IMG/VR virus record: IMGVR_UViG_3300011904_000029
Span: 6,312 to 70,311 of that record
DNA length: 64,000 nucleotides
From: a virus
Lineage: Duplodnaviria; Heunggongvirae; Uroviricota; Caudoviricetes
Direction: 5' to 3' (one strand)
The translations under genes and the position numbers were made by a program. Below are positions 6,489-56,173 of the stretch, in pieces. Below the pieces are notes generated by a model that saw nothing but the letters and a program-made list of their open reading frames with translations, was not told the origin of the DNA and did not search any database. The stretch's first letter is position 1. Each line of letters begins with the position of its first letter.

Positions 6489-7889
6489 TTATGCTTCACA
6501 CATAATACAGTCTTCGTCACGCTCATATTCTTCTGTGTATGTATAATAAATAGTCTTAAGTTGCTTCTTCCATGCTCCAAGATCTAATCTTAGAAGTTCT
6601 GAGCCTTTGATTGATTTAGGCACGTGCATATTATGACTTACTCCCTGATCTATGAATTTTTGTGCTGCTGAAATTACATTAATTGCCCACATTTCATCCA
6701 TTTCAAATCCTGACTTATAGAACCATTTTGTTTGATTATTGTAGTTTGAAGGAACATAAATTACGTTCAGCCCAGACTTTTCTTCCCGATATATGACCTC
6801 ATATGGAGGGTCAATTGAAGGTGAAGAGTTCATAATCAATGAGTTTGAGCTTGTAGGCGCAATTGCGCTTAAATAAGCATTTCTCATTCCTTTGCTTGCT
6901 AAATCACGAAGTTCACTCCATTCATCAGAAACAAAACCTCGCTTATCAAAGAACTCTCCGGTTTGCCAGTCAGAACCTTCGAATAATGGATACGATCCTT
7001 TTTCTTGTGCTAATTTAGCTGAAGCTCTAATCATTGCTTTTAAATACTGTTTAAAAATGTCTTCAGTAAACTTAGACGCTTCTTCAGACTCCCATCTAAT
7101 ACCTCTAGAAGTCATTAGTGTAACCAATCCCATAGACCCTGCACCTACTGCTCTATAAAGCTTGTTAGTGTGCGTGGCTTGAGGTACAACAGTCCGATTC
7201 AGTGAAATTACGTTATCTAACATACGAAATTGGATATCAACAACACGTTGCAAATCAACATCCTTAGATTCATCAAATACATTATTCAAGACTAAAGATG
7301 AGAGGTTGCAAGTTACTAAACCATCTCCTATAACTTTCGTAACAACAAAGCCATCTTCATCTAAATTCTCAGATATACACCTATCAACTTCCATATTTTG
7401 TATGACCTCACTACAGAGGTTTGATCCAAAAGGCATCCCAACATGTGCATTCGGGTTCATCCTTGCTGCTGTATCATGGAAGTATAAATAAGGAGTACCA
7501 CCAGTTTTTCTTGATGTAAAAATAGACTTGTAAATATCTGTAGCATTAACCACTCGTTTAATTTCAAACGACATATCTTTTTCTGCCTTGCGATACCAAT
7601 AGGTAAAGGCATGATCTTCTTCATTCGGTTCTTCATCAGCCATTAACTTTTTCTTATCATAAAGACGATTCAAGTCAACACCCATCTTCTTCCTGAATTC
7701 ATAAGGATCAAAGATTGTCCAGTTTTGCTTAGATTCTAATCTTCTCATGTACTCATCAGGAAGAGTAACTGCTGTTTTAATTGAATGCGCCCTAAGTTCT
7801 TGAGATCCTGTTTTTAAGCGTAAGTCTAAAAAATCAAAAATATCATAATGCCATACAGGTAGGTATAATGCGATTCCTGCAACTCTTGA
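6489..7889 (-). CDS. nrdE: ribonucleotide reductase class Ib alpha subunit, exon 2
   Basis: contains AGIALYLPVWHYDIFDFLDLR, SNLCSEV active-site motif, C-terminal CxxC tail; exon start placed after intron terminal G at 7890. Confidence 0.85.
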   Translation of the reverse strand, partial: SRVAGIALYLPVWHYDIFDFLDLRLKTGSQELRAHSIKTAVTLPDEYMRRLESKQNWTIFDPYEFRKKMGVDLNRLYDKKKLMADEEPNEEDHAFTYWYRKAEKDMSFEIKRVVNATDIYKSIFTSRKTGGTPYLYFHDTAARMNPNAHVGMPFGSNLCSEVIQNMEVDRCISENLDEDGFVVTKVIGDGLVTCNLSSLVLNNVFDESKDVDLQRVVDIQFRMLDNVISLNRTVVPQATHTNKLYRAVGAGSMGLVTLMTSRGIRWESEEASKFTEDIFKQYLKAMIRASAKLAQEKGSYPLFEGSDWQTGEFFDKRGFVSDEWSELRDLASKGMRNAYLSAIAPTSSNSLIMNSSPSIDPPYEVIYREEKSGLNVIYVPSNYNNQTKWFYKSGFEMDEMWAINVISAAQKFIDQGVSHNMHVPKSIKGSELLRLDLGAWKKQLKTIYYTYTEEYERDEDCIMCEA

Positions 7890-8946
7890 CAAATTTGTTA
7901 CTACCTTATTAAAAGGCGGATAGGTCATTTCTGCCTATCTCTCTATGTCGCCATAGAGTTCAGACTATATCTTCTTGTGCGTGTGGTTATAAAAATTTAT
8001 TTTATATAATATGTATTTCTTTATTATGTAGTTCCATATGACATTCGAAGCATAATGTCTGTAAGTTTTCCTCTTTATTTGCTTCATTAATATCGTCAAA
8101 CTCCTCTATAGGAATTATGTGATGAACATTTAGTGCGTACTTTTCATAACTTTGAGTGTTGCAAATTTGACAAGTATAATTATCTTTTTTGACTTTTCTT
8201 TCTCGTATTCTTGACCACTTACTTCCATATCTATTTGGATTTTCTCTAGAAAACTGTCTATTTACACATCTATTTGAACAATATATTCTTTTATTTGACG
8301 GAACTGTAAAAGAAGGTCTTTCAAATTCCTTTTTGCAACAATAACATATTAATTTAATTGTATTTTGTTCGTTAGCAATATTGATACATTCTTGTGAGCA
8401 ATAGCTTATTTCTTTCCTATCTGCCCAAAACTCTTTATCACATACCTTACAGTTTAAATTATGTTTGTTTTTTCTACATAAATCAGAGCAATAATTACCG
8501 TCTTGTTGTATTCTCTGCTTAGCAATTTCAAACTCTTCTTTGCAATATTTACAATTAACTTTGACTTTTTTTGAGTTAATTGCTCCTAATTTAGCACTAC
8601 ACTTATGTGAGCATGTTCGTTTGGATCGCTCTCTTTTATTTTTTATATTTACTGTAAAAATGCTTTCACATATCTCACATTCCTTATCAACATATTCTTT
8701 TACTCTAGGTATTTATTATTCCTCCCTTGATCGCAACCACACGCACAAGTTTGGTTCGAGTTATAAAATTACTCTTATAACTACTTAGTCGTTGAACCTT
8801 CTACCTGGGAAACCAGGAAGCTCGGCTGCGAATTGCCCGCACTCTTGGGTTTTTAGGGTTCGCCGTGTCATTACTGCACGGTATCCTACCTTGAGATACT
8901 CGGGGTTCCCCGCAATTGACCAATTTTATACTCGGCTCATAAGTTA
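7890..8946 (-). mobile_element. group I intron interrupting nrdE, with embedded HNH endonuclease ORF
   Basis: exon 1 reads ...YVNQLG then stops; exon 2 resumes SRVAGIALYL (conserved YVNQxGxRxGAxAxYL block reconstituted); 5-prime exon end ACUCGGU pairs with internal guide GCCGAGU (U-G at splice site); intron ends with G; GC-rich structured core at 8760-8945. Confidence 0.7.
8002..8712 (-). CDS. intron-encoded HNH homing endonuclease with N-terminal zinc-ribbon repeats
   Basis: 236-codon open frame with C-terminal CQICN...HHIIP...NLQTLCFECHMELH HNH motif; preceded by GGGAGG RBS and TAATAA; no in-frame ATG/GTG/TTG near 5-prime end (first codon ATA). Confidence 0.65.
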   Translation of the reverse strand: MPRVKEYVDKECEICESIFTVNIKNKRERSKRTCSHKCSAKLGAINSKKVKVNCKYCKEEFEIAKQRIQQDGNYCSDLCRKNKHNLNCKVCDKEFWADRKEISYCSQECINIANEQNTIKLICYCCKKEFERPSFTVPSNKRIYCSNRCVNRQFSRENPNRYGSKWSRIRERKVKKDNYTCQICNTQSYEKYALNVHHIIPIEEFDDINEANKEENLQTLCFECHMELHNKEIHII

Positions 8947-34903: not shown

Positions 34904-35131
34904 TTACTCGGTTGGAAATAAACCAACAATATCAGAATATTTTACTAACAACATTTGTTCGCTATCTTTATTCCAAAAAGCGTTTATATTAGTTGGGTTT
35001 GTAACAAAATTTTCGCATACACCAATAAACTTACAGATTTTTTCACTGTTTGGTTTTTTATAATAAACAAAATACTCTTTGTCTCCTATGTAATACGGTT
35101 CTCTCTTCATAATTTTCACCTCGCATTTCAA
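34904..35131 (-). CDS. hypothetical protein
   Basis: 75-aa ORF. Confidence 0.35.
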   Translation of the reverse strand: MKCEVKIMKREPYYIGDKEYFVYYKKPNSEKICKFIGVCENFVTNPTNINAFWNKDSEQMLLVKYSDIVGLFPTE

Positions 35132-37004: not shown

Positions 37005-37364
37005 TTATTGATCTAAGTCGTAGTCTTCATAAATGTTATAGGCCACAAAAATTTCAGTATGTTTATTAAAATACTCGTGAGCATTCCAAGCACCAAACAT
37101 AAAGCAGCCATTAAGAAAAGTAACCTCCTGCTCTAGCTTCTCTTCTGTAATTCTATTAGTGCCGATAACGATATCTCCTTCGTATATCTCTTCTCCAAAC
37201 CTGTCTTTTAAACCTGAGAATAGACATACGGTATTGAAATAAACTTCTTGTGAGCCTATGTACGCTTTTCTATCATCGTAATTTATGTAAATTTCACTTC
37301 CATATAGCCAATCATCTTCTTTTACTAATGGCTCGATACTAATACCACGGAATTTAAGCTTCAT
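37005..37364 (-). CDS. hypothetical protein
   Basis: 119-aa ORF. Confidence 0.4.
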   Translation of the reverse strand: MKLKFRGISIEPLVKEDDWLYGSEIYINYDDRKAYIGSQEVYFNTVCLFSGLKDRFGEEIYEGDIVIGTNRITEEKLEQEVTFLNGCFMFGAWNAHEYFNKHTEIFVAYNIYEDYDLDQ

Positions 37365-37376
37365 TTTTAATCTCCT

Positions 37377-37577
37377 TTAGTCTTCATCATAATTAAAAAA
37401 TTTATGTCCAGTATATCCTTTAAAAAATAGCTTCTTTTTAGGGTGGTCTGAGCACTCAGCATCAAAGAATATTCCGCCAGTTTTAATTAGCTCACAAGTC
37501 GAACACTCTGGCTCATGAACTTTTGTTCCGTTCATATAGTCCTCAGAACGCTCCATGATAATCTCTTCAATTGGCAA
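37377..37577 (-). CDS. hypothetical Cys-rich protein
   Basis: 66-aa ORF. Confidence 0.35.
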   Translation of the reverse strand: MPIEEIIMERSEDYMNGTKVHEPECSTCELIKTGGIFFDAECSDHPKKKLFFKGYTGHKFFNYDED

Positions 37578-40465: not shown

Positions 40466-40798
40466 TTATGATGATGCTGCTTTAAGTGAATAAGAAGTGT
40501 TTAATGACACCCCTTCACTTTGTGGCAACTTAACTCCTAGTGTTTCCAATAAAAACTTTCTCATAATATTCTTTTCAGTCTTATGTAAATCAAATCCAGA
40601 ATCATCAAAACCATAATCAATCTCTTCTACTGGGTGCATTGTTATTTTATTTTGTATAAAATCTATATGTGTGTAGACATAATGCTTACTATCGACAAAT
40701 CCTCTAGTGATAAACTTAACTGGTATAATTGCAACTAACTCCTCTTCGTCCCATTCTTCAATGTAATCAAAAAATTCCTTCTCTAAGTTGATTTTCAA
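40466..40798 (-). CDS. hypothetical protein
   Basis: 110-aa ORF. Confidence 0.4.
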   Translation of the reverse strand: MKINLEKEFFDYIEEWDEEELVAIIPVKFITRGFVDSKHYVYTHIDFIQNKITMHPVEEIDYGFDDSGFDLHKTEKNIMRKFLLETLGVKLPQSEGVSLNTSYSLKAASS

Positions 40799-40957
40799 GA
40801 CAATATCCCCTTTTTCATTTATTTTTCTCTAGCCCATCAAACAGCAATTAAATTATTTCTCCTTTCTTTAATATCAAAAAACAGAACGAATGTTCCCTTT
40901 AATTATATGGCTTGTTCTGTTTTTATGCAACAGTCAAAGTTTTAATATTTTTATCTA

Positions 40958-41022: not shown

Positions 41023-41235
41023 ATGAAAAAGATAGAAGTCGGAAAGTGCTTACTTCCTGAACTTTTGTATGAGCGTAAAATGACACAAGTTGATCTTGAA
41101 ACTAAAACCGGAATTGATCGTAGACAAATTAATTCCTATATCAAAGGTCATAGGAGGATGTCTCTAGTTAATGCGAAAATTATTGCTACCGCATTAAAGT
41201 GTGTCATTGATGACTTATACGAGTGGAAAGGGTAA
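41023..41235 (+). CDS. XRE-family helix-turn-helix transcriptional regulator (YopS-like position)
   Basis: 70 aa; LLYERKMTQVDLETKTGIDRRQINSYIKGHRRMSLVNAKIIATAL is a classic Cro/CI-type HTH; divergent from the repressor-like operon. Confidence 0.65.
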   Translation: MKKIEVGKCLLPELLYERKMTQVDLETKTGIDRRQINSYIKGHRRMSLVNAKIIATALKCVIDDLYEWKG

Positions 41236-41466: not shown

Positions 41467-42462
41467 TTACCCATATAATTTTTCGACATTTTTTTCATTT
41501 ACAAACTGTTTTATATATGCCGTATTGTAATAAGTGTAGTCCTTCACAGTTATGGGGCTTAAATTGTACTTAATTGCTATCTTTTCAAATTCTTCATATT
41601 CGATTTCATTTGAGAACCCTTTTTCTTTTTTATCTTGAAGCAGCTTATATGCCATATAAATCATCCCTGATCTTGTCAATGACTTTGGTGTTATATCTTG
41701 AAAGTCGAAAAGTTCCGCAATCATTTTTATTCTATTCAATATTGTTATCTGACTAACTCTTTCTCCTTCCTTAACTCTGCCTCTTCTAACGTTTTTAATT
41801 ACATAATCACTCTCAACGATCTGAGAAGTTGAAAATCTCCCTTCTTCAACTGTTCCATTCCTGTTTAAATATTCATCATTACTATAATGAGCCTGTCTTA
41901 TTAACTCAATAACATCGTCTTCAAAATAGACAAATCTTTCTCCTTTTACATCATCATATAATCTCACTTTCCCAGTTTCTTCTTCTACATCAGCCCATCT
42001 TAAGTTTCTTAACTCACTGCTCTCTGTGCCATAAACTCCCTCAAATAATAAACGTAAAACCACTCTATCTTGAATATTTACTAAGTTGTTATATATATAA
42101 TCGAGTTCCTGTTTTGAAATAAACTGCTTAATGTCTTTATCAATAAACTGTCTATACCATTCTCTGTCTAAATTCTGCATAGGATGAATGTTGCTTGTTC
42201 GTAAATTATTCTTAATAGCCCACGCTATATATTGTGAAATAAAATTTCCTCTTGTTACTGCTACATTTAACGATTTGGGGTTTGAGTTAGCAATTACAGA
42301 ACCAATTTGATCTAGTGAAAAATCATACAAATCTTTCCCTAAAGGGACTTCATTCCCATAGGCATAATAAAAAATATACTCTACAACGTTTCTTGTCGTT
42401 TCACTATCATAGGCATCATTTAAAAATCTTTTTTTGATATCTTCATTATACATTTTATGCAT
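41467..42462 (-). CDS. tyrosine-recombinase-fold protein with degenerate active site (YopR-like repressor candidate)
   Basis: 331 aa; box I-like VLRLLFEGVYGTESSELRNLRWADV retained but box II reads SLTRSG (His replaced by Ser). Confidence 0.45.
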   Translation of the reverse strand: MHKMYNEDIKKRFLNDAYDSETTRNVVEYIFYYAYGNEVPLGKDLYDFSLDQIGSVIANSNPKSLNVAVTRGNFISQYIAWAIKNNLRTSNIHPMQNLDREWYRQFIDKDIKQFISKQELDYIYNNLVNIQDRVVLRLLFEGVYGTESSELRNLRWADVEEETGKVRLYDDVKGERFVYFEDDVIELIRQAHYSNDEYLNRNGTVEEGRFSTSQIVESDYVIKNVRRGRVKEGERVSQITILNRIKMIAELFDFQDITPKSLTRSGMIYMAYKLLQDKKEKGFSNEIEYEEFEKIAIKYNLSPITVKDYTYYNTAYIKQFVNEKNVEKLYG

Positions 42463-43897: not shown

Positions 43898-45400
43898 TTA
43901 CCCAATTTGATCATAGTCTTCTTTATACATCCATCTGTATCCACCAGCTGATTTTCGGCGACCTTGGCAAACTAGTGATATTCCATTAGCACTTTTCATA
44001 TTTAAATGCTTTCTTGCTTTTCCCATACTTTCCCATGATTTGATAAATCTTCCATCATGTGTCAGCTGAACAATTTCTTTTGATTTTATTAGCGCCCCTG
44101 TATTTTTCTTTGAATCATAATCACACCAACCGATTTTGGCTCCCTGTTTTAAGAATTTAATTGCTGTATTTCTTCCTATATTAAGTGTTTTAGATATCTT
44201 TAATGAGCACCTTACTCCCATATTCCATAAATCACTTGCATCTTTTACTAATGTTGAACAAGCAAATTCGTGACACTTTAACCACTCAATATTGGAAAAA
44301 TTGATTAGATTTATAATATCGCTATTTAGAATACCTACTTTTATCCAGTCTATATTTGAATATCTACAATCCAATACAATATAATTAGCAATTCCGTTTT
44401 CTTTAGCTAATTCTTTTTTTAATTTGTCGTTCTTTTTAACTTCAATTAGGCTACCTCCTTTAAATCCTTCTTCATAATGCTGTAACCCATGTGTCTCTAT
44501 TATCATATTTAAATCAGGAATATAAAAGTCATACCTCTTATATCCAACAATATCCTCATCTTTAAGTTTTACATTTTTTGACCAACTAAATATTTTCTGT
44601 GTTTCAAATTCCATGTTTAATTGCATGAATATGCCAATAACGAATTTTTCTGGATAACTAAATCCATCAGAACATCTTGAGCAGCTAAATCCTTGATTGA
44701 CAACATTATCTATAAATTTCATTTCTGAGTTACTACATTTTGGACAAGTAAACCTTAGTTTTCTTTGACTCCCTTTAGATACTTCATATCCTATGCGGGG
44801 ATCAGATAAAAGACTCGCTACATCAGGATTAGTCGCCCATAGGCAATTCGTATGATTTACTTTTTTTCCAGTACAATATGGGCAATTATTACCATTAACT
44901 TTATTAGCTATTGTCATGGAATATTCACTTTTGCATAATAAACAATTCCACTTATACTTGATTCCAGAAGACTTAAATATCTTGTCTGGCGTACAATCAT
45001 TTTTATTACTAAACTCAAGCAATATATAGTTTTTATTATTTTCTTTTACCCAATATTCTAAAGTGTGTTCATACGACATAATTTCTCTTTTAGTTATTTC
45101 GGCTTTTATACTACCACATCTTCTACACCTATCAATTCCATCTCCAGCTTGTCGACTTGAGATAATTTTAGAATAACTTTGATTCTTAATCACCTCATTA
45201 CAGTCATCACAAATCTTAGTAACCTTTACATTAGAATTTTTAGGTAGATCGCTGACGCTTATTAGTATTTTTGTATTAGGTGGAACTGTTAGTCTTCCTT
45301 GATTATTTTTACGTCTTGGTATGTGATACCCCAATAATTCATAATATTTATCAGTTTTTAATCCACATCTTACCCATATTTCTTTCTCTAATATAGCCAA
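43898..45400 (-). CDS. zinc-ribbon / PD-(D/E)XK-like homing endonuclease paralog (family 3 of 3) with C-terminal NUMOD1-like DNA-binding tail
   Basis: 500 aa; CxxC...GH repeats; YDFYIPDLNMIIETHGLQHYEE...KENGIANYIVLD nuclease block; C-terminal ...SAGGYRWMYKEDY. Confidence 0.55.
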   Translation of the reverse strand: MAILEKEIWVRCGLKTDKYYELLGYHIPRRKNNQGRLTVPPNTKILISVSDLPKNSNVKVTKICDDCNEVIKNQSYSKIISSRQAGDGIDRCRRCGSIKAEITKREIMSYEHTLEYWVKENNKNYILLEFSNKNDCTPDKIFKSSGIKYKWNCLLCKSEYSMTIANKVNGNNCPYCTGKKVNHTNCLWATNPDVASLLSDPRIGYEVSKGSQRKLRFTCPKCSNSEMKFIDNVVNQGFSCSRCSDGFSYPEKFVIGIFMQLNMEFETQKIFSWSKNVKLKDEDIVGYKRYDFYIPDLNMIIETHGLQHYEEGFKGGSLIEVKKNDKLKKELAKENGIANYIVLDCRYSNIDWIKVGILNSDIINLINFSNIEWLKCHEFACSTLVKDASDLWNMGVRCSLKISKTLNIGRNTAIKFLKQGAKIGWCDYDSKKNTGALIKSKEIVQLTHDGRFIKSWESMGKARKHLNMKSANGISLVCQGRRKSAGGYRWMYKEDYDQIG

Positions 45401-48865: not shown

Positions 48866-49648
48866 TTAATCTTTATCAATCAATGCCTCTATCCCTTTGC
48901 TGGAAAGAATGCTATGTATAAACAGCCTGCCTTTTTGCGTCCACTTTGTGTTCATTCGTGAATTTCCATGCTTATCTACATGTGTATTTGACTTTGTATA
49001 TCCCTTGTCGGCATGTTCAGCGTATAATAACCATTGCTTACTAAGTTTATATTGAACTTTTTCATTATGTAAAATCTTATTGAGTTTTTGAGCAGTAAGT
49101 CCATAATCTTTTGCAATCTGACTAATAGTTATTGTTCCCTTGGATTTTAGTATCTCATCATAATATGTAACTTTAGGCTCATATTCTTTAACCTGCTGTT
49201 CAAGCATTAGCTTTTCAGTTTCTATACGTTTCTTCTCTTCTTGTTCTTTAATCCATTGCTTTGCTCGTTCGATTGGATCTTCAATCATGTACGAATGTAA
49301 AACTACGCCTTGTTTTAATGTTTTCTCCATTTCCTCAAACTTTGTAACGTAAGTAGCAGTGAATAAAATCCCTTTTTCTCCAGTTAATTTATTTGCTACC
49401 ATATCGCAGCCTTTTTTAGTCAATAGATAATGTGGCTTCTCTCTTTTATAACTATCTAAATATGTGCTTTCTTTGAAGAAATTAGATGGGTTCAATTTTG
49501 TACCCATGTTAGAATTAGTCAAATAACCAATATATGTTCTAATATCCCTCATTAAGATTTTGTGCTCTTTACCAACCATATCTGCAACTTCTCTACTATC
49601 CACTAACAACTGACCATTTCGCTCCATAATTTCTAATTCTTTTATCAT
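48866..49648 (-). CDS. phage regulatory protein Rha / antirepressor (Rha N-domain plus Ant C-domain)
   Basis: 260 aa; N-terminal RNGQLLVDSREVADMVGKEHKILMRDIRTY matches the Rha family signature. Confidence 0.55.
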   Translation of the reverse strand: MIKELEIMERNGQLLVDSREVADMVGKEHKILMRDIRTYIGYLTNSNMGTKLNPSNFFKESTYLDSYKREKPHYLLTKKGCDMVANKLTGEKGILFTATYVTKFEEMEKTLKQGVVLHSYMIEDPIERAKQWIKEQEEKKRIETEKLMLEQQVKEYEPKVTYYDEILKSKGTITISQIAKDYGLTAQKLNKILHNEKVQYKLSKQWLLYAEHADKGYTKSNTHVDKHGNSRMNTKWTQKGRLFIHSILSSKGIEALIDKD

Positions 49649-49983: not shown

Positions 49984-50102
49984 ATTTCATCCCCTAATGA
50001 AAGATTTATTTTACTAATTTATTTTTTTTACAATAACTTACCAACATCAATATCCATGACTCAATTAATCTCAACGTGATAAAATTCACTTGAGGTGTTT
50101 AT

Positions 50103-50927
50103 ATGTTTATTTCTCCTATGTTATTGCATAAATCCGATAAACCATTCGATAATGACTCCTGGATAACAGAACTTAAATTAGATGGATTTCGCTGTATATG
50201 GACAAAGTTTAATAACAAGGTCAAAATTTATACACGACACAACAATGAGATAACTGCATTATTCCCAGAGCTTCAATCACTTGATATCCCCGATGGCACT
50301 ATCCTTGATGGTGAATTAGTAGTAACAGATCATCAAGGGAAGCCAAACTTTGAATATCTCTTAGAACGTTTTAAATCAAAGAAGTCACAACACAAAATAA
50401 CATTTTGTCCATTTGATATAATTTATTTAAGTAATGATAATCTATGTAGACTTCCTCTTATTGAAAGGAAAGAAATTATAAATGAGCTAATACCAAAAGA
50501 CACGCAATTACTCACAAAAGTTAGTTGGTTAAGTGGTAATGGTATAGTTTATTTTGAACTAATTAAACAACACGATCTTGAGGGTATTGTCCTTAAGAAA
50601 GCAAATTCTACTTATCAAGTAAACAAACGATCACAAAATTGGATAAAAGTAATCAATTATAAATATGAAAATGTGCTTGTTTCCGGCTTACGAAGAGATA
50701 AATTTGGCCTTCTATTATGTTATGAGAATGGCAATTATGCTGGATTGTTAGAGTTCATGCCACCGCAAAACCGGAAACAATTTTATAGAGTCTATAGAGA
50801 TTGCACTATTAAGGAAGATGATAAGTATTTTTATTTAGACCCAAAAATTAAGATGAAAGTTAAGTTTCGCAATTATACAAGTAAAGGTTTGCTTAGAATT
50901 CCTAGTTTTGTGGAGTGGGTGTCATAG
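50103..50927 (+). CDS. ligB: ATP-dependent DNA ligase (minimal adenylation + OB domain type)
   Basis: 274 aa; motif I ELKLDGFR (KxDG), further nucleotidyltransferase motifs; GAGGTG RBS. Confidence 0.8.
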   Translation: MFISPMLLHKSDKPFDNDSWITELKLDGFRCIWTKFNNKVKIYTRHNNEITALFPELQSLDIPDGTILDGELVVTDHQGKPNFEYLLERFKSKKSQHKITFCPFDIIYLSNDNLCRLPLIERKEIINELIPKDTQLLTKVSWLSGNGIVYFELIKQHDLEGIVLKKANSTYQVNKRSQNWIKVINYKYENVLVSGLRRDKFGLLLCYENGNYAGLLEFMPPQNRKQFYRVYRDCTIKEDDKYFYLDPKIKMKVKFRNYTSKGLLRIPSFVEWVS

Positions 50928-50953
50928 CTCCACACATACATAAAAGATCATCC

Positions 50954-51307
50954 CTAAGACAATTTCACATCAATAATTTTTTCTATTGAAATCTTCTCAG
51001 ATTTACCATTCAATACTATATGCAATTTCTTTTCAATATGGTCATACTTGTTAATATGGCACTTCTTCTCAGTAATGCTTCCCAAATGATAAACGGACAA
51101 GTATACAGGAACATAGTCTTCAATAGCAATTGTCAACAAATCATTTATCTCCATCCATTTTTGCTCATCTAAAATTGGCTTATTAATCAGCTTTTTATTA
51201 GAATTATGGGAAATGATTTTCTCTGTATGTTCAGGCAACATCATCCTACTTGATTCCCACCTTAGATTTTGATTTTTTGTTAATTTATTGATTTTCATTG
51301 CAATCAT
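50954..51307 (-). CDS. YolD-like protein (accessory to Y-family polymerase)
   Basis: 117-aa ORF immediately downstream of and co-oriented with the Y-family polymerase gene. Confidence 0.45.
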   Translation of the reverse strand: MIAMKINKLTKNQNLRWESSRMMLPEHTEKIISHNSNKKLINKPILDEQKWMEINDLLTIAIEDYVPVYLSVYHLGSITEKKCHINKYDHIEKKLHIVLNGKSEKISIEKIIDVKLS

Positions 51308-51310
51308 CCT

Positions 51311-52546
51311 TTATTTATAGTGACCACCAATTTTTGAAGCTCTTTCGGATGCTTGACCTGCTTTAGTTAATGACGATGCCCTATATAATGCTGTACGTCC
51401 GTATTTATCCCAAATTTCATCTAGTGCTGTATTCAGTTGCTCCCTATATGAATAGTTATCAAATAAATCAATCTGGTAGTTGTCTGCTGGCTGTAAGTTA
51501 GAAATACTCACACCTAAACTGCGTATTGGCTCTTTATTCCAAAACTTTAACAGTAATTTATAAGCTGCATTAAAAATATCTAGATCATAATTTGTTGGCA
51601 CTGATAAAGTAACTTGTCGATTAAATCCGGTTGGAAAATCAAAATCCGCACCTCTAACGCCACAAGAAATTGTTGTTCCCATGTATCCTTTCTTTCTACA
51701 TCTTCTAGCTACTTCAGTACATAGTTCTAATAGTACAACCTTAATTTCATCTAAATCCATATAATCTCTGGGCAAAGTCATATGATGGCCAACTGCTTTT
51801 TGTTGATTGTGCGTCTTAACAGTGACTGGCGAATAGTCGATACCGTTGGCTGTCTGCCATAATACCTCTCCATTAATGCCCCATCTTTTCTTCAGCAATT
51901 CAACTGGAAATTTAGCCAGTCCTCCAATTGTAAAGATGCCCATCCCGTTTAAATTACGTTTCATTCGTTTGCCTACACCAAACATTTTTTCTACTGGCAG
52001 CTTCCATAACTGGTCAATGTTGTTTTGATCTAGACGGAATATGCCTTCTTTGTTCTTTTTAGCAAAGTTATCACAAGCCATTTTTGCTAATATCTTATTT
52101 GATCCTATACCTACTCTGGCATATACTCCAGTATCATATAATATTTTTTCCTGAACTTTTTTAGCTATTTCAAACTGATTACCAAATAACTTTTGACTAC
52201 CAGTTACATCCATAAATTGTTCATCAATACTAAACTGCTCAACTAAATCAGTAAACTCTTCCATAATTTTGCTAATTTGCATAGAAACATTAATATATAA
52301 CTGCATATGAGGTTTAACTACCTCAACATTAGGACATTTCAATAAAGCAGATCCCAATGTTTCGGCTGTTGTGATGCCAAATTTCTTTGCAATTGGACAT
52401 GCAGCTAGGACTATGCCACTTCTACGCTCAGGGTCTCCCGCAACAATAACAGGCTTATCCTTTAATGAGTTATTATTAACTTTTTCAACTGAAGCATAGA
52501 ATGATTGCATATCAACTAAGAAAATCACTTTTTCTGCCAATGACAA
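51311..52546 (-). CDS. Y-family translesion DNA polymerase (UmuC/UvrX-like)
   Basis: 411 aa; N-terminal VIFLVDMQSFYASVE, FSIDEQFMDVTG, GVGKRMKRNLNGMGIFTIG motifs. Confidence 0.85.
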   Translation of the reverse strand: MSLAEKVIFLVDMQSFYASVEKVNNNSLKDKPVIVAGDPERRSGIVLAACPIAKKFGITTAETLGSALLKCPNVEVVKPHMQLYINVSMQISKIMEEFTDLVEQFSIDEQFMDVTGSQKLFGNQFEIAKKVQEKILYDTGVYARVGIGSNKILAKMACDNFAKKNKEGIFRLDQNNIDQLWKLPVEKMFGVGKRMKRNLNGMGIFTIGGLAKFPVELLKKRWGINGEVLWQTANGIDYSPVTVKTHNQQKAVGHHMTLPRDYMDLDEIKVVLLELCTEVARRCRKKGYMGTTISCGVRGADFDFPTGFNRQVTLSVPTNYDLDIFNAAYKLLLKFWNKEPIRSLGVSISNLQPADNYQIDLFDNYSYREQLNTALDEIWDKYGRTALYRASSLTKAGQASERASKIGGHYK

Positions 52547-52562
52547 TCACCTCAATTAATAA

Positions 52563-52574
52563 GAACGTTCGTTC
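52563..52574 (-). promoter_or_regulatory. LexA (Cheo) box GAACN4GTTC downstream of polY promoter
   Basis: GAACGTTCGTTC exactly fits GAAC-N4-GTTC; second near-match AAACACTTGTTC at 52590-52601 inside spacer of TTGCAT-18-TATAAT promoter (52581-52610). Confidence 0.55.
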
Positions 52575-52845
52575 CCTAATATTATATACAAACACTTGTT
52601 CTTTATGCAAGGTGATTTTAATTGGTAAAAATTTTACACTTTATTCCAGCGATATTCTAATACGTCTGTTATGTATTTATGTATATTCACTATTAATCTC
52701 TCTTGGTTCTATAACACCTTCATAGTGAAGTCCTTCATTTTTTAAGCTTTTCATGATCTTATGTATAAGTTCCTTGGCATCTATTTCTTCTTCTGTCCTC
52801 AACTCCCCATTTATCCTAAAAGTTTTCAACACAAATACACCTCCA

Positions 52846-53046
52846 TTACTTTATTTCATGGCTAAGAAGCTTCAAATAACCCTTAATCATTTTCTTGCGA
52901 ATATCTCTAGCTTCTTTCTTGTTACTATGTGCGTAAGTATCTGCTGTCAAGAAATCAAAATTAGCACACTTTTGATATGCTTTAGTATATCTATGTTCTT
53001 GTAAAGATAATACTCTCCTCTCCATACCCAAATATCCCCCATGCAT
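52846..53046 (-). CDS. hypothetical small basic protein
   Basis: 66-aa ORF (possibly starting at internal MERR...) downstream of TTTACT-16-TGcTATAAT promoter near 53060-53090. Confidence 0.35.
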   Translation of the reverse strand: MHGGYLGMERRVLSLQEHRYTKAYQKCANFDFLTADTYAHSNKKEARDIRKKMIKGYLKLLSHEIK

Positions 53047-53269
53047 TATTTTATTTAACTATTATCATTATAGCACATGGAGGATTAAAGTAAACATTTT
53101 TACAATAAATATTTATTTTGTTTTTGATTTTCTTTAAATCTATACATAACAAATCCATCATCCAGGTTAATAATTAGCCCCTTTCCAAATTCATTTCTTA
53201 AATCCTTAATAATTTTATTTTTTTGTCTATAAGTATTGAATGGAACGCAACCAGTAATAAACACCTACC

Positions 53270-53413
53270 TTACTCACCCTTTCTTTTATCAGTTTTATCA
53301 ACCGAACTTAAAAACTCTCTTATGTCATCTACACTCATCCCCAATTCTTTAGCAGTCACAATTAATTCATACCATTCCTGATCTAATTGTTCTCGCTGAG
53401 ATTCCAATTCCAC
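53270..53413 (-). CDS. SinI-like (Sin-domain) small protein
   Basis: about 46 aa from GTG/TTG after GGAGGTG RBS: ESQREQLDQEWYELIVTAKELGMSVDDIREFL resembles SinI LDQEWVELMVEAKEANISPEEIRKYL. Confidence 0.45.
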   Translation of the reverse strand: MELESQREQLDQEWYELIVTAKELGMSVDDIREFLSSVDKTDKRKGE

Positions 53414-53595
53414 ACCTCCATTTATTCATATGTATTTATTTTATTAATAGAAGCTATAAATTGATCTTGCTGTTATTTCAAATTGAAGTGAGTGATTTTT
53501 ATGTTTGGCTGATATATGACTGTTTTAATTTTAAAACTTATCTCTAAATGAATTGACTGTTTTATTGAATTAATCTTCAATAATATTTTTTCGCA

Positions 53596-53772
53596 CTATG
53601 CATTAACCAATTTGGAATATGCTACTTTCAATCCGTCCACTTCATCAACGCTATATCCTTCAAAGGCTTTGCTTCCTGCATCTAATAACATTTCATCTTC
53701 TGTATCGTATTTAATAACTAACTTCTCTTTGTGCACAGTCTCCATCGACAAGGTTTTGCTGATTTGCTCCAC
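53596..53772 (-). CDS. hypothetical small protein
   Basis: 58 codons from GTG with AGGAGGG RBS; coupled to upstream ORF. Confidence 0.4.
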   Translation of the reverse strand: MEQISKTLSMETVHKEKLVIKYDTEDEMLLDAGSKAFEGYSVDEVDGLKVAYSKLVNA

Positions 53773-53784
53773 TTTTAAGCCCTC

Positions 53785-54021
53785 CTATTGCTCCTTCTCA
53801 TACCAGGTAAATTGTTCTCCAACTTGCTCAAAAACCCACTCAATATACTCTTTTGTTATTTCTTCTTCAGTATCATCATCTTCAAATTCAAATTCCTCTT
53901 CATAAACATGGTGATCTCCTAATCCGTATCTGTGACGAAAAACAATTGTTCTCATTTTATTTCCTCCTTGTTCCATTAAAATCAGATATTTATTTAGTTG
54001 CCTATTTATATTAACGTTCAT
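53785..54021 (-). CDS. hypothetical acidic protein
   Basis: 78-aa ORF. Confidence 0.4.
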   Translation of the reverse strand: MNVNINRQLNKYLILMEQGGNKMRTIVFRHRYGLGDHHVYEEEFEFEDDDTEEEITKEYIEWVFEQVGEQFTWYEKEQ

Positions 54022-55325: not shown

Positions 55326-55673
55326 TTATAACCCCTCTGCCATCCCCAGGCTTACCATAATAGCATTATCAACTTTATTCATTGTGAATTGATCCAAGGC
55401 GGTTATTTTGCCTTCTAATCGCTTCTTATCAATGGTTCTTATCTGCTCTAATAATACCACGGAATCTTTAGAAAGACCGTATCTTTTAGCATCTAATTCA
55501 ACATGAGTAGGCATCTTCGCTTTTTGTATTTGACTAGTCACAGCAGCAACAACGGTTGTTGGACTATAGTGGTTCCCAATATTATTTTGAATTACGAGTA
55601 CAGGTCTATATCCACCTTGTTCACTTCCTCTTGTAGGACTTAGATCTGCGAAGTAAATGTCACCTCTTTTCAC
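55326..55673 (-). CDS. mazF: MazF/EndoA (PemK-family) mRNA interferase toxin
   Basis: 115 aa from GTG; [66 protein letters not shown]... closely matches the Bacillus EndoA sequence as recalled. Confidence 0.85.
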
Positions 55674-55798: not shown

Positions 55799-56173
55799 TT
55801 ATTGATTTATGATATAACCATGCATCAAGCTTGCCAATTTAGCTGCTCTTTTTACCGATAACTCAATCCAATTATCATCATTTTTATCTGTGTAGCAAAT
55901 CAAAGATAATTTCATATTTCCGTTCATGTCTTTACCAATAAATAGTGATCTCTCTACATCTTTGGAGTAAGTGCTAATTTCTTCATTATAAGCCTTATCT
56001 TCTGGGATTACCTTTTCAATTTTGTTAATACCATTTAAATGTTTTTCAATTTTATTTAATATATATAAAGCTTCATTGTCATCAAGAATCGCTCTATAAT
56101 AACCTCTCTTATCAGAATCACTGGTGAATCTCATTATTACTGATTTCCCTTTTGTTTGAAGTTCAATGCTCAT
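55799..56173 (-). CDS. hypothetical protein
   Basis: 124-aa ORF. Confidence 0.4.
   Translation of the reverse strand: MSIELQTKGKSVIMRFTSDSDKRGYYRAILDDNEALYILNKIEKHLNGINKIEKVIPEDKAYNEEISTYSKDVERSLFIGKDMNGNMKLSLICYTDKNDDNWIELSVKRAAKLASLMHGYIINQ

Follow-up and report, generated by a model that had tools for sequence, protein, structure and literature searches.

Whether a phage places its translesion DNA polymerase under the DNA-damage response of its host can be asked directly at the promoter of the polymerase gene. In the phage DNA analyzed here (a stretch of 64,000 nucleotides, hereafter called the window, which is identical to part of the 164-kb contig DAMDKB010000005.1 of the third-party assembly GCA_032100165.1), the question is raised by positions 52547-52640, immediately upstream of genes for a Y-family polymerase and a YolD-family protein on the minus strand. 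On the evidence of the motifs and their conservation, this segment is very probably a sigma-A-type promoter with two predicted operators for the host LexA (DinR) repressor, heading the polymerase-YolD operon. The specificity of the host LexA was assumed from Bacillaceae relatives, the closest being Siminovitchia, Lederbergia, and others.

All elements of the promoter were read directly on the minus strand. The -35 hexamer TTGCAT (52610-52605) is followed by an 18-nt spacer, aaaGAACAAGTGTTTgta (52604-52587), and by the -10 hexamer TATAAT (52586-52581). Within the spacer lies the distal LexA (Cheo) box, GAACAAGTGTTT (52601-52590; AAACACTTGTTC on the plus strand), which has one mismatch and ends 3 nt before the -10 hexamer. 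The proximal box, GAACGAACGTTC (52574-52563; GAACGTTCGTTC on the plus strand), is exact and begins 6 nt past the -10 hexamer, and it therefore covers the inferred transcription start. The full host consensus for the Cheo box is CGAACATATGTTCG, with the core pattern GAAC-N4-GTTC; the proximal box matches this core at 8/8 specified positions and the distal box at 7/8. A ribosome-binding site, GAGGTGA (52553-52547), stands 6 nt before a TTG codon at 52540. Read 5' to 3', the minus strand is TTGCAT aaaGAACAAGTGTTTgta TATAAT attagg GAACGAACGTTC ttattaatt GAGGTGA ttgtca TTG. The original prediction of a TTGCAT-18-TATAAT promoter, with an exact Cheo-type box just downstream (52563-52574) and a one-mismatch box inside the spacer (52590-52601), thus held in every letter and position. 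However, the -35 hexamer is a weak match to the consensus: it agrees with TTGACA at 3/6 positions, with the TTG retained. For this reason, the promoter was missing from the list produced by a consensus promoter scan. The same promoter and terminator scan found no terminator in 50000-54000, and 50500-53500 had no Rfam match at E <= 1.

The first gene of the operon (51311-52540, minus strand) encodes a translesion DNA polymerase of the YqjW/PolY2 type, with 409 aa and a TTG start. Pfam matches of the 411/409-aa open reading frame (ORF) comprised IMS (E 3e-45), IMS_C (E 1e-29), and HHH. Both catalytic motifs, DMQSFYASVE and SIDE, are intact, and a clamp-like motif, QIDLF, is present. The start of the ORF had been placed at 52546, where it abuts the ribosome-binding site, and was moved here: translation almost certainly begins at TTG 52540, given that residue 3 is where the homologs start to align and that the NCBI record is the 409-aa form. 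The YolD-family gene (50954-51307, minus strand; PF08863, E 4e-20) is the second gene of the operon and is separated from the stop codon of the polymerase by 3 nt; an alternative start at ATG 51298 (114 aa) appears among the gene calls. The identities proposed earlier for the two genes were thus borne out by their Pfam families. YolD proteins have been proposed as counterparts of UmuD (PMC6511836), and the requirement for YqjX is unproven (PMC13335488).

On the other side of the YolD gene, and converging on it, lies a gene for an ATP-dependent DNA ligase (50103-50927, plus strand; 274 aa, DNA_ligase_A_M domain only), whose strand is opposite to that of nearly all other genes. The polymerase-YolD-ligase trio is syntenic in locus L003 of Siminovitchia, and in Psychrobacillus phage PVJ1, too, the polymerase operon has a ligase next to it. 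The three genes may form a mobile repair module.

To what extent the operators are shared by homologous operons was assessed in loci that encode relatives of the polymerase, 88 of them from genomes or viruses and 80 from metagenomes, with 77 of the metagenome loci counted. At least one box (<=1 mismatch) was present within 100 nt of the start codon in 71/88 genome or viral loci, with two boxes in 47 and an exact box in 49. Most of the 17 genome or viral loci without boxes this close have one or two additional small genes before the polymerase, with tandem boxes upstream of these at distances of up to 1 kb. The metagenome loci gave a similar picture, with boxes within 100 nt in 55/77 and within 1 kb in another 21 (76/77 in total). 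In the same loci, exact boxes occurred at 6.5 per kb upstream of the polymerase gene versus 0.016 per kb elsewhere, a difference of approximately 400-fold. YolD follows the polymerase directly in most of the homologous loci.

The arrangement of the boxes is conserved along with their presence. Homologs carry them at approximately -55 and -25 from the start codon, and the window, measured on the same scale, at -55 and -28. The start-to-start spacing of the boxes has modes at 27 nt and at 29-30 nt among the homologs, and it is 27 nt in the window. A TATAAT-like -10 hexamer (<=1 mismatch) lies between the boxes in 102 of the 108 loci with a tandem pair; 92 of these 102 promoters leave 2-4 nt between the end of the distal box and the -10 hexamer, as does the window (3 nt). 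From the -10 hexamer to the proximal box, a gap of 6 nt, that of the window, is the commonest (21 loci), followed by 8 nt (18 loci) and 19 nt (15 loci). The box geometry conserved in nearly all of approximately 165 loci, together with the published analogues in SPβ and at yqjW, supports the proposal that the phage polymerase would be wired to the host DNA-damage response.

The closest relative, the syntenic Siminovitchia locus L003, is 87% identical in the polymerase, 76% in YolD, and 83% in the ligase. It retains TTGCAT, TATAAT, and the exact proximal box, and its distal box has decayed; the second operator may therefore be dispensable. TTGCAT was also found in the viral contig L088. When further relatives with the exact promoter of the window were sought, a pattern scan of IMG/VR gave only unrelated coding matches. 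A metagenome scan gave two matches of >80% identity, both belonging to a variant with an inserted upstream gene and not to the promoter of the window, and three loci examined for this promoter (P0026, P0008, and P0013) all proved to carry other promoter variants.

Operons of a variant kind, with extra small genes behind the SOS boxes, were observed in L008, L002 (PVJ1), L188, L189, L190, L004, and L006, and likewise in L009, L010, L012, L093, L094, and L187. One of the extra genes encodes a WYL-like protein of approximately 73 aa with a conserved KAYCY...FRTF. Another encodes a protein of approximately 70 aa that has only the DNA-binding domain of LexA (PF01726), without the cleavage domain; such a protein could be an uncleavable LexA mimic giving feedback shut-off. 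In L187 (3290-5890; GCA_032100265.1, DAMDJW010000002.1), a related contig that by its adjacent accession looks to belong to the assembly series of the window, the polymerase homolog (86% identity) is interrupted just past DMQSFY by an insert of approximately 2.6 kb, which encodes a 621-aa reverse transcriptase (RVT_1) and is probably a group II intron.

The origin of the cassette was examined through its protein identities. The polymerase is 87% identical to the copy in a Siminovitchia genome, 75-84% identical to those of other Bacillaceae, and 62-63% identical to a ubiquitous chromosomal protein of the Bacillus subtilis group (a 412-aa cluster with 435 members), which we take to be YqjW/PolY2. 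Its identity to SPβ UvrX is 41-42%, and that of its YolD partner to SPβ YolD is 28%. Given the higher identity of the polymerase and the gene order of polymerase then YolD, the cassette is, as far as sequence comparison goes, of the host-chromosomal YqjW/YqjX lineage and not of the SPβ UvrX/YolD lineage. The cassette and its promoter design look to have been captured from a Bacillaceae chromosome rather than inherited from SPβ UvrX/YolD.

The nearest chromosomal system, yqjW (polY2)-yqjX of B. subtilis, shares with the window the order of polymerase then YolD and tandem boxes that flank TATAAT at the same offsets. It differs in that it is chromosomal and has no recognizable -35 hexamer but a conserved CCAGTAT instead, whereas TTGCAT is present in the window, whose promoter is also enclosed by an inverted repeat. 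The B. subtilis-type yqjW promoters as a group (L005, L007, L011, L014, L048, L084, and others) lack a recognizable -35 hexamer and carry a conserved TT(N)CCAGTAT immediately 5' of the distal box. In the window and L003, a related motif, TTACCAAT/TTTCCAGT, lies 11 nt further upstream, within the upstream arm of the inverted repeat. YqjW, UvrX, and YozK have been predicted to be LexA controlled, and yqjW/yqjX is SOS induced (PMC6511836).

In SPβ, two SOS boxes precede yolD and are shared with yolC, and LexA binds there with a Kd of 3.9 nM (Au et al. 2005, in PMC8270828). Counted from the end of the -10 hexamer, their positions are -17 and +14 (PMC8270828), and both exact boxes were confirmed here directly in the sequence. 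The yolD-uvrX (yolE) system resembles that of the window in belonging to a large temperate phage of the SPβ type, in combining a Y-family polymerase with YolD, and in having two promoter-overlapping Cheo boxes approximately 30 nt apart. However, the order in SPβ is yolD then polymerase, the polymerase is approximately 42% and YolD 28% identical to those of the window, and the divergent yolC uses the same boxes, with the cassette beside the sublancin genes. In contrast, the cassette of the window stands among same-strand genes of the early region and adjoins the ATP-dependent ligase.

Phage PVJ1 is similar to the window in its dinB-YolD order, in the adjacent ATP-dependent ligase, and in the Cheo-like boxes that head the operon; it differs in having genes for the WYL-like protein and the LexA-DNA-binding-domain-only protein between the boxes and the polymerase, and its polymerase is 34% identical. 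The LexA motif of Escherichia coli, CTGT-N8-ACAG, is unlike the Cheo box. A functional analogy to E. coli umuDC (Pol V) nevertheless exists, as both pair a Y-family polymerase with a small accessory subunit under known or predicted LexA repression (PMC6511836), although UmuD and YolD are not sequence homologues and the requirement for YolD/YqjX is unproven.

The predicted proteins identify the window as an SPβ-like phage region. PHROG matches included a helicase (24008), a DNA polymerase, a RecJ-like nuclease, a DnaB-like helicase, and ribonucleotide reductase, and the other matches of SPβ type were an integrase, YopX, and PHROG 5732. The gene order of SPβ is kept, with a yopP-like integrase, a yopQ-like gene, a yopR/MrpR-like gene, a divergent yopS-like helix-turn-helix (HTH) gene, and a YopX-like gene. 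The YopR-like protein is 33% and the YopS-like HTH protein 43% identical to its SPβ counterpart. Protein identities to SPβ were 28-43% overall, and nucleotide-level similarity of the kind that marks membership of the genus Spbetavirus was not found. Megablast of 50900-53100 against 50,697 phage records gave no match, and the segment has no close sequenced relative among them.

This SPβ-like region contains a second SOS-type promoter (40884-40930, minus strand), which consists of TTGCAT (40930-40925), a spacer of 17 nt, TATAAT (40907-40902), and, 6 nt further on, an exact box, GAACATTCGTTC (40895-40884), that scored 18.2 bits, the second best in the window. It lies between the yopS-like HTH gene (41023-41235, plus strand) and an ORF of 110 aa without a family match (40466-40798, minus strand), and the yopR/MrpR-like gene (41467-42462) is beside it. 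Its position is that of the SOS box between yopS and yopT in SPβ, a phage in which SOS boxes are known at yopS-yopT and at yorB in addition to yolD (Lazarevic 1999, Au 2005, in PMC8270828). As this promoter is of the same design, LexA wiring appears to extend to at least two promoters of the phage.

Several other features of the region were observed. Upstream of the YopX-like gene (37005-37364) lies a further exact box (37517-37528), GAACTTTTGTTC; it is inside an ORF of 66 aa, scored 7.7 bits with the weight matrix, and is probably not an operator. Near the polymerase operon, an ORF of 47 aa (53270-53413, minus strand) has a SinI-domain match in precomputed Pfam results, and a Rha/KilAC (ANT) antirepressor-type protein is encoded at 48866-49648 (minus strand); the two are candidate regulators of lysis and lysogeny. 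A toxin gene of the MazF/PemK family (55326-55673, minus strand; E 9e-37) is flanked by ORFs without a recognizable antitoxin family, among them an ORF of 124 aa upstream (55799-56173) without a Pfam match. HNH and homing-endonuclease ORFs (930-2576, 6489-7928, and 43898-45400) were found among ribonucleotide reductase fragments and beside the yopQ-like gene, which suggests intron- or intein-type insertions in the region of the replication genes.

Capture from a chromosome raises an alternative in which the boxes are a passive relic of the captured yqjW-yqjX, the operon is transcribed mainly from early or middle genes lying upstream, by read-through, and LexA is irrelevant. The promoter is separated from the same-strand ORFs upstream of it by no predicted terminator, and read-through during the lytic phase could thus bypass LexA control; in addition, the polymerase is much nearer to its chromosomal homologs than to SPβ UvrX, and the decay of the distal box in L003 is what a relic might show. 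The proximal box, however, has stayed exact in both the window and L003 despite diverged spacers and flanks. The -35 hexamer, the -10 hexamer, and the box offsets of the window have the modal functional geometry, and a second, unrelated promoter of the same phage follows the same design. We therefore consider the relic explanation improbable, and it would be weakened further by the inverted repeat around the promoter, which, if real, would disfavor the translation of read-through transcripts.

The upstream arm of this inverted repeat, TTTTTACCAATTAAAATCACCT (52631-52610, minus strand), contains the anti-Shine-Dalgarno sequence AATCACCT (also given as AAUCACCU), and the downstream arm, AGGTGATTGTCATTGGCAGAAA (52552-52531, minus strand), covers the ribosome-binding site and the start codon. 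The arms are 22 nt long and 82% complementary, and the energy of their duplex ranks second among the 103 minus-strand ORFs of the window. The upstream arm lies ahead of the promoter, and read-through transcripts would thus be the only ones to contain it. Minimum-energy folding of read-through RNA pairs the two arms in a helix (z = -1.9 for the window and z = -4.9 for L003). The helix is also the consensus structure of the window and L003, the only two sequences that share it, with two one-sided changes that preserve pairing and no two-sided compensatory change. In the short RNA initiated at the promoter, a local AU-rich hairpin is likewise predicted to pair part of the ribosome-binding site. 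An anti-RBS fold-back common to homologous operons was rejected, as the mean z over 89 loci was -0.39.

For IS10 and IS50, fold-back inhibition of externally initiated transcripts was reportedly described by Davis, Simons and Kleckner in 1985. The window resembles these elements in having, 5' of its internal promoter, a sequence complementary to the ribosome-binding site and start codon, with a helix that only read-through RNA could form. The difference is that the predicted fold-back of the window was seen in two related sequences only and that the short transcript is also predicted to pair part of its ribosome-binding site. By analogy with IS10, read-through RNAs might be translationally silent for the polymerase, with only transcripts from the LexA-controlled promoter being translated; on the folding predictions, we regard such insulation as a tentative and rather unlikely possibility. 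If true, it would keep the error-prone polymerase strictly SOS dependent inside a densely co-transcribed phage region.

A different repressor was considered as well. The palindromes might serve as operators for a phage-encoded LexA-like protein, or for a regulator with the LexA DNA-binding domain only, rather than for the host LexA; small proteins of the latter kind adjoin the polymerase in PVJ1, L008, and L188/L189. In the 64-kb window, which is part of the 164-kb contig, however, no ORF for a LexA-like or mini-LexA protein was detected by tblastn; the queries were two mini-LexA proteins, the PVJ1 small protein, and B. subtilis LexA (approximate sequence). Many genera without such genes have the same boxes at chromosomal operons, and the motif is the canonical host consensus. 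A phage-encoded regulator is accordingly very improbable, and control by the host LexA is the preferred reading.

The boxes were finally evaluated against chance. Three exact matches to GAAC-N4-GTTC were found in the window versus 0.36 expected, and none of 100 shuffled sequences reached this number. One-mismatch boxes, at 16 versus 14.2 expected, were not enriched, and the distal box is therefore meaningful by its position alone. With a weight matrix trained on 118 boxes upstream of homologous genes, from which the window was excluded, the proximal box ranked first in the 64 kb (18.9 bits), the site at 40884 second, and the distal box third (14.7 bits); the best score per simulated window averaged 12.4 ± 2.1 bits (n = 200 windows). 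A site at 34949 scored 12.6 bits, which is not above the simulated maximum, and it was rejected as an operator. We estimate the chance of an exact box in the 136-nt leader together with a second box at most 40 nt away at approximately 1e-5. That the boxes are chance AT-rich palindromes in a phage of 32% G+C is scarcely credible: AT-rich DNA is indeed rich in promoter-like hexamers and the one-mismatch boxes show no excess, but the shuffles, the weight-matrix ranks, and a position and geometry kept in more than 150 homologous loci effectively refute it.

Under host LexA control, the operon would work as follows. In an undamaged lysogen, one LexA dimer would occupy the spacer between the two hexamers and a second would cover the transcription start, and the two together would exclude RNA polymerase. 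Upon DNA damage, RecA filaments formed on single-stranded DNA would trigger the self-cleavage of LexA, the operators would be vacated, and the polymerase and YolD would be produced. The phage, or its host, would thereby gain lesion bypass when the SPβ-like prophage is induced. In this scheme, we infer LexA occupancy, a transcription start near 52576-52573, and induction by damage.

The finding at the polymerase promoter is real but ordinary, since both SPβ and the Bacillus chromosome provide earlier examples of this design. Its regulatory logic goes back to the work of Lazarevic 1999, Permina 2002, and Au 2005, and no new question is opened by it. What the window adds is that, beyond the B. 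subtilis group, SPβ-like phages would also appear to put a polymerase-YolD cassette under the SOS repressor of the host, and that SOS control is likewise predicted for a second promoter, next to the lysogeny genes that resemble yopR and yopS. The presence of a YqjW/YqjX-lineage cassette in a phage suggests that temperate phages have captured SOS-wired mutagenic polymerases repeatedly and independently, which has a bearing on damage-induced mutagenesis in lysogens (compare PMC13335488).
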